Source: Parcubacteria group bacterium (GTDB lineage Bacteria > Patescibacteriota > Minisyncoccia > 2-02-FULL-40-12). From it: DNA of 49,925 bases. A program made the position numbers and the translations under genes. Position 1 is the first letter of the stretch, and each line of letters starts with the position of its first letter. This document shows, one piece after another, positions 15,598 to 16,477 of this stretch. The DNA lies in the NCBI GenBank assembly GCA_016186395.1, contig JACPLU010000007.1:1-49925 (forward strand). The letters run 5' to 3'. Under the pieces are notes generated by a model. That model made no database searches. It had not been told where the DNA came from and saw nothing but the letters and a program-made list of their open reading frames with translations.

Positions 15598-15626
15598 TTT
15601 ACAATCATTATTTGTCTTGATATTCT
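15598..15626 (+). promoter_or_regulatory. promoter P1 of the tRNA-like RNA
   Basis: TTTACA-N17-TATTCT. The predicted TSS (~15633) coincides with the first base of the 12-bp terminal helix. Confidence 0.5.
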
Positions 15627-15632
15627 GAATCT

Positions 15633-15710
15633 GCGGTGGGGGTGGCTTAGTTGCGGGATTCGGCTTACCATCCAGAGTCCTCGGGGTGCAAATCCCCGCA
15701 CCTCCACCGC
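15633..15710 (+). ncRNA. tRNA-like RNA resembling a tmRNA tRNA-like domain (acceptor helix, GGAUUCG box, T-arm, ACC end) with no anticodon arm or mRNA-like domain
   Basis: GCGGTGGGGGTG (15633-15644) pairs with CACCTCCACCGC (15699-15710). The T-arm is CGGGG-TGCAAAT-CCCCG (15682-15698). GGGATTCGGC resembles the tmRNA GGAUUCGAC box. Confidence 0.5.
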
Positions 15711-15734
15711 ATCAAAGGATATCCACATAACTTA

Positions 15735-15762
15735 TTGACAGAATTTTACATTTTGCTATACT
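15735..15762 (+). promoter_or_regulatory. promoter P2 (extended -10)
   Basis: TTGACA-N16-(TGc)TATACT. Near-duplicate of P3. Confidence 0.65.
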
Positions 15763-15768
15763 TAACGC

Positions 15769-15840
15769 AGATGGTAAGCCGAATCCGCTTCTAAGTTAGG
15801 ATTCCTGGAAAGCCGCAGAAATGCGGTTTTTTGGTTTTTT
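15769..15840 (+). ncRNA. ~70-nt small RNA; its 5' 28 nt are complementary to the internal loop of the tRNA-like RNA
   Basis: GATGGTAAGCCGAATCCGCTTCTAAGTT (15770-15797) is the imperfect complement of 15644-15672. Also has hairpin GAATCC/GGATTC and terminator CCGCA-GAAA-TGCGG plus a U-run (15811-15840). Confidence 0.55.
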
Positions 15841-15915
15841 AGTAACCAACCGCAGGCCTGCCGAAGCCTCGGCATAGGTGGGGATTTTCTTTATTTTAAG
15901 CCATTTTTTCAGCTA

Positions 15916-15943
15916 TTGACAAATTCTGTCAGTTTGCTATACT
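15916..15943 (+). promoter_or_regulatory. promoter P3 (extended -10)
   Basis: TTGACA-N16-(TGc)TATACT. The predicted TSS context cAGAT is the same as at P2. Confidence 0.65.
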
Positions 15944-15949
15944 TATTTC

Positions 15950-16165
15950 AGATTAGACCTTTAAACGGTGGGGTTGGCAGTGCCCCATAGGATCCGGATA
16001 AGCCGCGTGATGAAGCAACACGTGCCACGGGAGAAGTCTCGGGGTGGAAACAGGAGCTAGGAAGATCGTTTGGAGAATCTAGATGTACTCCAGGCGTGAA
16101 ACTTAGTCCTAACCCGAGAACTGCCAACATTTCATCCACCACTCTGTTGGTGGATTTTGCTTTTT
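15950..16165 (+). ncRNA. ~215-nt structured RNA of unknown class with its own promoter and terminator
   Basis: Helices GTTGGCAG (15973-80)/CTGCCAAC (16121-28), TCTCGGG (16037-43)/CCCGAGA (16113-19) and CGCGTG/CACGTG. Terminator ATCCACCA-CTCTGT-TGGTGGAT plus TTTTGCTTTTT (16134-16165). GC-rich in an AT-rich genome. Confidence 0.55.
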
Positions 16166-16288: not shown

Positions 16289-16447
16289 ATGCCAGAAATA
16301 CTCGAGGGAATGAGATCAACATGTTGTAACGCACCTCTTTATATCGGCTATATGACTCCAATTGATACAGCACCGACTTTAGTATGCACCGCGTGCCATG
16401 AACGCGATAGAGAGGCAGAAAAGGAATACGACAAAACTCATATCTAA
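16289..16447 (+). CDS. hypothetical 52-aa Zn-ribbon-like protein (not in the ORF track, <60 aa)
   Basis: AGGAGGG SD 4 nt upstream of the ATG. Sequence MPEILEGMRSTCCNAPLYIGYMTPIDTAPTLVCTACHERDREAEKEYDKTHI. An intrinsic terminator follows. Confidence 0.55.
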   Translation: MPEILEGMRSTCCNAPLYIGYMTPIDTAPTLVCTACHERDREAEKEYDKTHI

Positions 16448-16455
16448 TCTTCCAA

Positions 16456-16477
16456 AAGCCTAAAACAGGCTTTTTTC
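16456..16477 (+). terminator. intrinsic terminator
   Basis: AAGCCT-AAAAC-AGGCTT followed by TTTT. Confidence 0.7.

Follow-up and report, generated by a model that had tools for sequence, protein, structure and literature searches.

The 49,925-nucleotide stretch analyzed here (the window: contig JACPLU010000007.1 of assembly GCA_016186395.1, from a Parcubacteria group bacterium) carries a conserved two-gene RNA module of Patescibacteria. The first gene specifies RNA1, a compact RNA that resembles the tRNA-like domain (TLD) of transfer-messenger RNA (tmRNA), with a P2-like stem-loop replacing the whole mRNA-like domain. The second specifies RNA2, which, judging from its predicted promoter and terminator, is a separately transcribed and terminated small RNA. 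The complementarity between the interior of RNA1 and the 5' part of RNA2 is real. The reading we favor, to which we assign a probability of roughly 0.4, is that RNA2 would be a dedicated antagonist or titrator of the mini-tmRNA-like RNA, one that we infer to act by opening and sequestering RNA1.

The complementarity stands out in the window even before homologues are considered. A repeat search of the window returned a 17-nt inverted pair, 15656-15672 and 15770-15786, which is 100% complementary and has arms 97 nt apart. It is the sole perfect inverted pair of 17 nt or more with separated arms in the window; by our own arithmetic, about 0.001 perfect pairs of at least 17 nt within 400 nt are expected by chance in 50 kb. 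The 17-nt core is extended to about 26 pairs in what is called helix A below. The initial annotation had proposed that 15770-15797 pairs with 15644-15672. Sequence and coordinates proved to be as it gave them, and RNAduplex recovers exactly the architecture described there, at -42.2 kcal/mol for the two segments: 17 bp, then a bulged G and 2 bp, and beyond a 2x2 mismatch another 6-7 pairs including G-U. The pairing is also specific. When the RNA1 interior (15645-15681) was scanned against all 50-nt stretches of the window, on either strand, RNA2 was its best partner at -42.6 (background mean -15.1, standard deviation 4.5), RNA1's own antisense strand being set aside. In the reverse scan with the first 35 nt of RNA2, RNA1 scored -44.6 against a background mean of -12.9 (standard deviation 4.0). 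Cofolding RNA1 with RNA2 gives -73.7 kcal/mol versus -63.6 kcal/mol for the separate RNAs, so thermodynamics permit the opening of RNA1 by RNA2.

Further evidence comes from covariation. In an alignment of 21 modules (A1), in which pairs, double changes and paired cells were counted, 20 of the 26 pairs of helix A have changed on both sides, and 89.9% of the cells remain paired. The stem that RNA1 forms by itself (the S5:S3 arm, 9 pairs) has 8 such double changes, with 92.6% of cells paired. The alignment also revealed an intermolecular helix beyond those in the initial annotation. This helix B uses the 7 nt that directly follow the helix A block in RNA2 (15798-15804), paired with RNA1 15675-15681; all seven pairs have changed on both sides (90.5% of cells paired). 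An alternative hairpin within RNA2, of six pairs, has double changes at all six, and 75% of its cells are paired. None of 500 shuffles reached the observed covariation score for helix A, helix B or the RNA1 stem. When the partner columns are slid, each of the three keeps about half of its pairing; in the structure containing helix A, the figure is 40-46%. The same cloverleaf-like fold of RNA1 is predicted by RNAalifold with no structure supplied.

Energies point in the same direction for the second helix. Helix B is more stable than the internal RNA2 hairpin in most modules (for example, -10.8 vs -1.5 in L128, -9.2 vs -2.1 in L082, and -6.5 vs -0.1 in L059). The RNA2 strand of helix B, S3', forms a more stable duplex with the RNA1 strand S3 than S5 does in 13 of the 21 modules, which fits the design of an invader. 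The RNA1 stem and the two intermolecular helices draw on shared nucleotides and so are alternatives; since all three covary, at least two states must be biologically relevant. The initial annotation had seen a dedicated trans-pairing pair here, and had named homologous loci as the place where complementarity might turn out to be lost. Instead, compensatory changes preserve it in 21 of 21 modules; the double changes in helix A, its proportion of paired cells and the retention of the RNA2 promoter in all 21 bear out the dedicated pairing.

In 21/21 spacers, a -10 element is present and a TTGAC -35 hexamer precedes the first complementary base by 32-37 nt; the predicted start of RNA2 coincides with its pairing seed in every module. 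All 21 RNA2s end in a hairpin followed by a U-run. The claim that RNA2 begins at its first complementary base agrees with the promoter and terminator positions in the window (Table 1) and with promoters so placed in 21/21 loci. Separate promoters and terminators for the two partners, as in trans-encoded small RNAs (sRNAs), are predicted in 21/21 modules, though RNA1 has no terminator of its own in any module, by consensus scan in the window and by inspection elsewhere. Because RNA1 lacks one, read-through transcripts that carry both RNAs are also expected. We considered RNA2 as the mRNA-like piece of a split tmRNA and rejected this: no conserved reading frame follows RNA2, and a frame in the window ending in AEASA-stop is not kept in L111 and L131. 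The sequence 3' of RNA2 differs even between the window and these closest relatives.

RNA1 shares a set of features with tmRNA. Its inner 7-bp acceptor stem, GGGGGUG/CACCUCC, contains a G3:U70 pair (G15640:U15703) and is followed by A15706-C-C, which on its sequence reads as the alanine/tmRNA pattern. Position 3 is G, forming G:U with U70, in every family member, and this position was left free in the genome scan. The terminal A of CCA is not encoded in the window (G15709 stands there) and is encoded in six modules. RNA1 shares its T-arm, with an identical T-loop (UGCAAAU), and its 3' strand with Patescibacteria tmRNAs called by ARAGORN. Those tmRNAs start with GGGGCUG-UAUAGCUUCGAC and RNA1 with GGGGGUG-GCUUAGUUGC; the UAG D-loop motif is common to both. 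The RNA1 stem abuts the T-stem without a variable region, a placement like that of P2, and RNA1 has the appearance of a tmRNA that has lost all of the sequence between P2a and P2b. The initial annotation had invoked a P2-like helix, and the idea was apt: RNA1 resembles the tRNA-like domain of tmRNA, and the segment bound by RNA2 includes the P2a-like strand. A 5-nt leader, paired with A73-C-C-N-N, extends the acceptor stem to 12 bp. This extension shows C-G to U-A covariation and is found in Patescibacteria members only. The predicted RNA1 transcription start is the first leader base. In the consensus scan, the RNA1 promoter P1 is weaker than that of RNA2; in other modules, a -10-like hexamer is found about 7 nt upstream of the leader.

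In spite of these likenesses, RNA1 matches no catalogued RNA family. It has no tag reading frame, only the 13-nt loop lying between the P2-like strands, and ARAGORN finds no tag. ARAGORN and Rfam 15, the latter at gathering thresholds and at E<=10, gave no relevant match for RNA1 or RNA2 in the window and 14 loci. The best tmRNA-type score, to tmRNA_permuted, was a sub-threshold 15 bits over 15682-15976 (gathering threshold 47). No Rfam tmRNA family matches at threshold, and the pseudoknots PK1-PK4 are not present in RNA1. Since both the tag template and the pseudoknots fail, RNA1 is not filed as a tmRNA. Nor does it form a canonical tRNA cloverleaf, with its D-stem of 3-4 bp, anticodon stem of 5 bp, 7-nt anticodon loop and U33: RNA1 has only a 2-bp mini-stem in a D region of 9-10 nt, its next arm (7+2 bp) is bulged and ends in an 8-nt loop of non-constant sequence, and the tRNA model RF00005 does not call it.

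Table 1. Features of the RNA1-RNA2 module in the window (promoters, terminator and transcript ends are predictions)
Feature	Position	Strand	Remarks
Promoter P1 of RNA1	15598..15626	+	-35 TTTACA, 17-nt spacer, -10 TATTCT, upstream TG; predicted start G15633; consensus scan
RNA1, tmRNA-TLD/tRNA-Ala-like RNA	15633..15710	+	single-sequence folds; RNAalifold consensus gives the same cloverleaf-like structure
RNA1 leader	15633-15637	+	pairs with trailer
RNA1 acceptor 5' strand	15638-15644	+	GGGGGUG
RNA1 D-loop analogue	15645-15654	+	contains UAG
RNA1 stem strand S5	15655-15661	+	
RNA1 loop L	15662-15674	+	13 nt
RNA1 stem strand S3	15675-15681	+	
RNA1 T-arm	15682-15698	+	CGGGG-UGCAAAU-CCCCG
RNA1 acceptor 3' strand	15699-15705	+	CACCUCC
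RNA1 A73-CC	15706-15708	+	
RNA1 trailer	to 15710	+	pairs with leader
Helix A, RNA1 strand	15645..15672	+	D-loop analogue, S5 and most of loop L; duplex -42.6 kcal/mol; 26 aligned pairs
DnaA-box-like site ATATCCACA	15719..15727	+	8/9 match to DnaA-box consensus TTATCCACA; 8 nt after RNA1 trailer, 7 nt before RNA2 -35
Promoter P2 of RNA2	15735..15762	+	TTGACA-16 nt-TATACT, TG extension; 11/12 consensus positions; start ~15769-15770
RNA2, partner small RNA	15770..~15842	+	~70 nt; predicted promoter and terminator
Helix A, RNA2 strand	15770..15797	+	duplex energies, covariation, repeat search, partner scan
RNA2 L' (5'-terminal seed)	15770-15780	+	
RNA2 S5'	15781-15786	+	
RNA2 D'	15787-15797	+	
RNA2 S3', helix B strand	15798..15804	+	AGGAUUC; pairs with RNA1 15675-15681 (GAGUCCU)
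RNA2 A-rich linker	between S3' and terminator hairpin	+	
RNA2 intrinsic terminator hairpin	15805-15834, then U-run	+	stem covaries

The family was collected by scanning species-representative genomes with a pattern made of the T-arm and the 3' acceptor strand, and its sampling is biased by the search patterns. The scan returned at least 119 loci of two kinds. The first kind comprises the 3' ends of ordinary one-piece tmRNA genes, including several in Patescibacteria for which ARAGORN calls a tag peptide. The canonical one-piece tmRNAs of Patescibacteria (L049, L051, L034, L115, L010, L007 and others) have the unusual T-loop UGCAAAU, with G at position 55. The second kind comprises RNAs of about 70 nt with the build of RNA1. 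In these, GGGG(G/A)UG is followed by a 9-10-nt UAG segment and then by a stem (about 7+2 bp) closed by an 8-nt loop; the T-arm, the matching 3' strand and ACC come after it. In Patescibacteria they form at least 21 modules, in metagenome-assembled genomes (MAGs) labelled Yanofsky-, Uhr-, Nealson-, Doudna- and Saccharibacteria and in metagenomes. Two copies are present on one contig, and two in one genome. A gapped pattern gave eight metagenome matches, adding five distinct modules, as well as a copy of proteobacterial type on an IMG/VR contig.

In Patescibacteria the partner is constant: each member is followed on the same strand, after 39-70 nt, by a sequence complementary to the interior of its RNA1 (duplex energies of -38 to -50 kcal/mol). 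RNA1 look-alikes also occur in Sinorhizobium and Rhizobium (after pheST), other Proteobacteria, Acidobacteriota and Verrucomicrobia, where the best downstream match to the RNA1 interior is ordinary and distant, and no partner was found. These homologues suggest that RNA1 can act alone and that RNA2 is an add-on. The canonical Patescibacteria tmRNAs have no such downstream partner either, their best duplexes reaching -8 to -24 kcal/mol. In the fetched loci, smpB adjoins canonical tmRNAs and none of the modules. Among the matches listed, no genome contains both a module and a canonical tmRNA with the UGCAAAU T-loop. Clustering of open reading frames (ORFs) within 4.5 kb of 28 loci found no protein neighbor common to the Patescibacteria modules. 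A BLAST search with a proteobacterial RNA1 homologue against plasmids and phages matched nothing but the T-arm of a permuted SsrA annotated in a Pelagibacter phage.

How RNA2 might act as an antagonist can be read from the order of its segments. The 5'-terminal 11 nt, predicted to be single-stranded and unstructured, would nucleate on the 13-nt loop of RNA1. Past this seed come 6 nt complementary to the 5' strand of the RNA1 stem, which RNA2 could thus enter by strand invasion, and then 10-11 nt that match the D-loop analogue. The 7 nt after these match the S3 strand that would have been released, so that each strand of the stem would gain a new partner. RNA2 would in this way open the P2-like arm and bury the D-loop analogue; in tmRNA, the corresponding region contacts SmpB and the T-loop. 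RNA1 would lose its tRNA-like shape, and the duplex of about 26 bp might be suited to RNase III. One copy of RNA2 would be co-transcribed with each RNA1, and extra RNA2 could be supplied from its own strong promoter. As an antagonist, RNA2 would be comparable to an RNA antitoxin or a sponge. The existence of RNA1 homologues without RNA2 fits a lineage-specific controller, not a core part.

Several considerations weigh against RNA2 being an antagonist. The covariation of helix B could mark a stable, functional junction complex, and RNA1's lack of a terminator makes pairing in cis within a read-through transcript possible. Alanine charging and SmpB binding, if RNA1 undergoes them, are hypothetical properties suggested by its sequence. 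The promoters and terminators are consensus predictions, and the invariance of the T-arm, U70 and A73 is partly by construction, the search pattern having fixed the T-loop, U70 and A73-CC (CUCCACC). There is also a problem of geometry. The strands of helices A and B are joined by 2 nt in RNA1 (15672 to 15675; three alignment columns) and by 0 nt in RNA2 (15797 to 15798; one column), and helix A exceeds helix B by about 19 bp. Because the links are so short and the lengths so unequal, a complete helix A can probably not coexist with helix B and an undisturbed acceptor/T minihelix in a 1:1 complex of intact RNAs, an argument from geometry, not computation. Hence the helices would form in succession, or more than one RNA1 would be engaged, or RNA1 would be nicked between the loop and the stem.

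The last of these options leads to the main rival, a two-piece ribonucleoprotein in which RNA2 is an obligate structural subunit. Helix A would then serve as the long P2 of a tmRNA, helix B would tether RNA2 beside the T-arm, and the resulting four-way junction would be the active form. We consider this unlikely as a whole, even though it best accounts for helix B and for the extended acceptor stem. Helix B covaries at 7/7 pairs and is better kept than the RNA2 hairpin; the alignment columns place helices A and B against the acceptor stem and T-stem with linkers of 0-1 nt, as in a cloverleaf-like junction; and the 5-bp leader:trailer extension covaries and occurs only where RNA2 exists. Long P2 helices are found in Patescibacteria tmRNAs, and the listed matches include no genome that has both the module and a canonical tmRNA of this T-loop. 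For the four helices to coexist, RNA1 would have to be nicked between L and S3 (about 15673-15675). The model thus predicts two RNA1 halves, held together by the 12-bp extended acceptor stem that only Patescibacteria members have, and this nick is hypothetical. The model leaves unexplained why the intramolecular stem of RNA1 is itself under selection. No tag frame or pseudoknot is present in RNA2 or downstream, where the window differs from its closest relatives; the RNA2 body would exit from the TLD-proximal end of the junction, which is not the case for the mRNA-like domain of tmRNA; and helix B is weak in 3 of the 21 modules (L118, L117, L036). A bolder version, that the junction complex (an acceptor/T minihelix with two intermolecular arms) is the working form of a template-less ribosome-rescue or alanine-donor RNA, we regard as improbable. 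If true, the tmRNA lineage would have a third architecture besides the one-piece and the permuted two-piece form, and this one might replace canonical ssrA in module-bearing genomes.

The pairing might also work in cis. Transcripts reading through from P1 would form the helix of about 26 bp within one molecule, as an RNase III-type stalk or a folding switch that sets the 3' end, yield or lifetime of RNA1, the internal promoter being secondary. Besides the missing terminator between RNA1 and RNA2, the constant adjacency of the genes, on the same strand and 39-70 nt apart, speaks for such an element, and a single-strand fold of 15634-15842 gives a long hairpin of -75.1 kcal/mol. A purely cis helix would have no need of a near-consensus promoter that starts transcription at the first paired base, and this promoter is kept in 21/21 modules. 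The helix would moreover be pseudoknotted with the acceptor stem, and helix B would go unexplained. We judge a cis element to be less probable than the two-piece complex. A match by chance, or a feature of the DNA such as a protein-binding inverted repeat or a recombination site, with no RNA-RNA role, is at the far end of the scale. In its favor is the DnaA-box-like motif conserved between the arms in about half of the modules: the 9-mer occurs at the same position with at most one mismatch in 10 of 21, is exact in six (L131, L127, L111, L126, L133, L099) and is absent from modules of the Uhrbacteria type. GC skew indicates no replication origin in the window, and ATATCCACA may be a protein-binding or regulatory site. 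Besides the low chance expectation for the window, the arms sit in two transcription units with predicted promoters and a terminator, and they diverge freely while staying complementary, including through G-U pairs that work only in RNA. Since the covariation tolerates G-U, a chance or DNA-level origin is excluded for practical purposes.

The module can be set against several known systems. RNA1 has in common with the TLD of tmRNA (SsrA) an acceptor stem of 7 bp (GGGGNNN/NNNCUCC, including G3:U70) and A73-CC, a T-arm adjoining the acceptor strand, with the UGCAAAU loop of the ARAGORN-called Patescibacteria tmRNAs, a short UAG D-loop analogue in place of a D-arm, and a P2-like helix directly before the T-stem. 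It differs in being only about 70 nt long, its 13-nt loop replacing the pseudoknots, resume codon and tag frame of the mRNA-like domain. Moreover, RNA1 is missed by the tmRNA models of ARAGORN and Rfam, does not lie beside smpB, and has a partner RNA that canonical tmRNAs lack. The two-piece permuted tmRNAs of alpha- and beta-proteobacteria and cyanobacteria are similar in that they too consist of two RNAs from a single locus, joined through base pairs in which the P2 region takes part. In the permuted genes, as Keiler, Shapiro and Williams reportedly described in PNAS in 2000, the acceptor stem forms between the two pieces, and the coding piece carries the tag frame. The piece with the T-arm, 3' strand and CCA lies upstream of a coding piece that begins with the 5' acceptor strand. 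RNA1, in contrast, holds both acceptor strands, while RNA2 starts with the complement of the RNA1 loop and has no acceptor strand or reading frame. The annotated permuted SsrA of Pelagibacter phage Mosig has only the T-arm and 3' strand in common with RNA1.

Reduction of a tmRNA relative to its tRNA-like part is also seen in jakobid mitochondria. Their tmRNA (Rfam mt-tmRNA) is a TLD only, with no tag template; it is organellar and derived from a two-piece form. We know of no partner RNA for it, and the Rfam search gave no mt-tmRNA match for RNA1. In its mode of pairing, the module is closer to RNA I/RNA II of ColE1, CopA/CopT and sRNA sponges, where nucleation of a loop on a single strand is followed by an extended duplex and one RNA controls the fold or fate of the other. 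The partners in ColE1 RNA I/RNA II and CopA/CopT are transcribed from opposite strands of the same DNA and are complementary by construction. The genes of RNA1 and RNA2 lie on the same strand, with 97 nt between the paired arms, and their complementarity is kept by co-evolution, in two blocks of permuted order. Both genes being on the + strand at separate positions, and with no conserved ORF, the pair is neither a cis-antisense pair nor a type I toxin-antitoxin system. In Nanoarchaeum, split tRNAs consist of archaeal halves that are spliced into a decoding tRNA. As in the module, separately transcribed RNAs are joined by an added complementary helix beside a tRNA-type fold; the difference is that RNA1 is already complete and RNA2 contributes no part of a tRNA. 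Bacterial Y RNA (YrlA), a tRNA-like module whose two ends lie in a Ro-binding stem and whose gene adjoins rsr, does not fit either: both ends of RNA1 are in the acceptor stem, no Rfam Y-RNA family matches, and the neighbors in the window are UDG, MGMT and PolX-type genes, with none conserved across loci. Full-text literature searches on tmRNA, tmRNA-like and tRNA-like RNAs in Patescibacteria, Saccharibacteria and candidate phyla gave no description of RNA1-RNA2. None of these nearest systems has the same combination of a self-contained mini TLD RNA and a same-strand, separately promoted partner that co-evolves with it in two permuted blocks.

IS1595-family (ISXO2-like) transposase genes are found 0.1-0.45 kb 3' of RNA1 homologues outside Patescibacteria, in either orientation (L134, 4528-5523; L058, 1282-2235), and an ORF of L107 clusters with these transposases. 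The RNA1 gene may, by analogy with tRNA and tmRNA genes, be an insertion hot spot. In five loci of proteobacterial type (L052, L100, L031, L107, L134), a small ORF and a strong hairpin lie directly upstream of the RNA1 homologue. The small ORFs of L052, L031 and L107 have in common a C-terminal motif of the type S-L-S-P-Q-L-S-R-L-K, with no Pfam match, and ORF and RNA together may be a protein-RNA cassette distinct from the RNA-RNA module of Patescibacteria. In L031, a Proteobacteria MAG contig, a tRNA with anticodon UUA (minus strand, 1037-1112) follows the RNA1 homologue after 5 nt. ARAGORN calls it 'tRNA-Stop', an ochre-suppressor form, which suggests a mobile-element or phage context. A Saccharibacteria-labelled contig (L038) has a group I intron matched by Rfam at 54.6 bits (minus strand, 963-1281), about 4.5 kb from its RNA1-RNA2 module.

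Within the window, a third promoter-terminator unit, RNA3, follows the module (15916-16160, about 210 nt); its promoter, TTGACA-16-TATACT, spans 15916-15943 and its terminator 16134-16155. The likeness of its 5' part, ACGGUGGGGUUGGC, to the leader and acceptor 5' strand of RNA1 accounts for the weak tmRNA_permuted match mentioned above. RNA3 is strongly structured (-69.9 kcal/mol). As the coding piece of a tmRNA (15950-16160), it was rejected: it has no plausible tag or T-arm, and neither a family in Rfam nor a homologue in the fetched loci. Farther on, 16290-16447 is a 52-codon ORF, below the default ORF length cut-off, with a strong GGAGG ribosome-binding site and a terminator at 16454-16474. 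Its Cys-rich product (CC...C..C) resembles a zinc ribbon.

The window has a G+C content of 33-46%, mostly 35-39%, and the majority of its genes lie on the minus strand. The products of the flanking genes are a MurG-type glycosyltransferase, the delta' subunit of DNA polymerase III, an MGMT-type methyltransferase domain, a uracil-DNA glycosylase (UDG) and a PolX/PHP polymerase. Named relatives of the UDG are from Yanofskybacteria and 'Patescibacteria group', which marks the window as chromosomal DNA of a candidate phyla radiation bacterium. Synteny was sought through the UDG gene and given up: homologues 60-80% identical were found, but on contigs with other neighbors and no RNA1. Two imperfect inverted repeats lie elsewhere, at 11186-11209/11294-11317 (24 nt, 92%) and at 34594-34614/34643-34663 (21 nt, 90%), the latter just 3' of a tRNA-Val gene region.

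The tmRNA-SmpB system is the near-universal ribosome-rescue system of bacteria, and tmRNA is, to our knowledge, known in only two gene architectures. To these, the present family adds a widespread, unannotated mini-RNA that keeps only the tRNA-like end, in Patescibacteria with a partner and, without one, in Proteobacteria, Acidobacteriota, Verrucomicrobia and a viral contig. In Patescibacteria it also adds a co-evolving partner RNA that would remodel RNA1. The covariation is unusually clean, each of three mutually exclusive helices being supported, and on that account the module would be a natural strand-displacement switch. Whatever its function, the module alignment gives a ready covariance model for the annotation of Patescibacteria genomes. 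Should RNA1 accept alanine or bind SmpB, these organisms, whose translation machinery is minimal, would possess in the RNA pair either a control of trans-translation built in at the RNA level or a decoy for that process.

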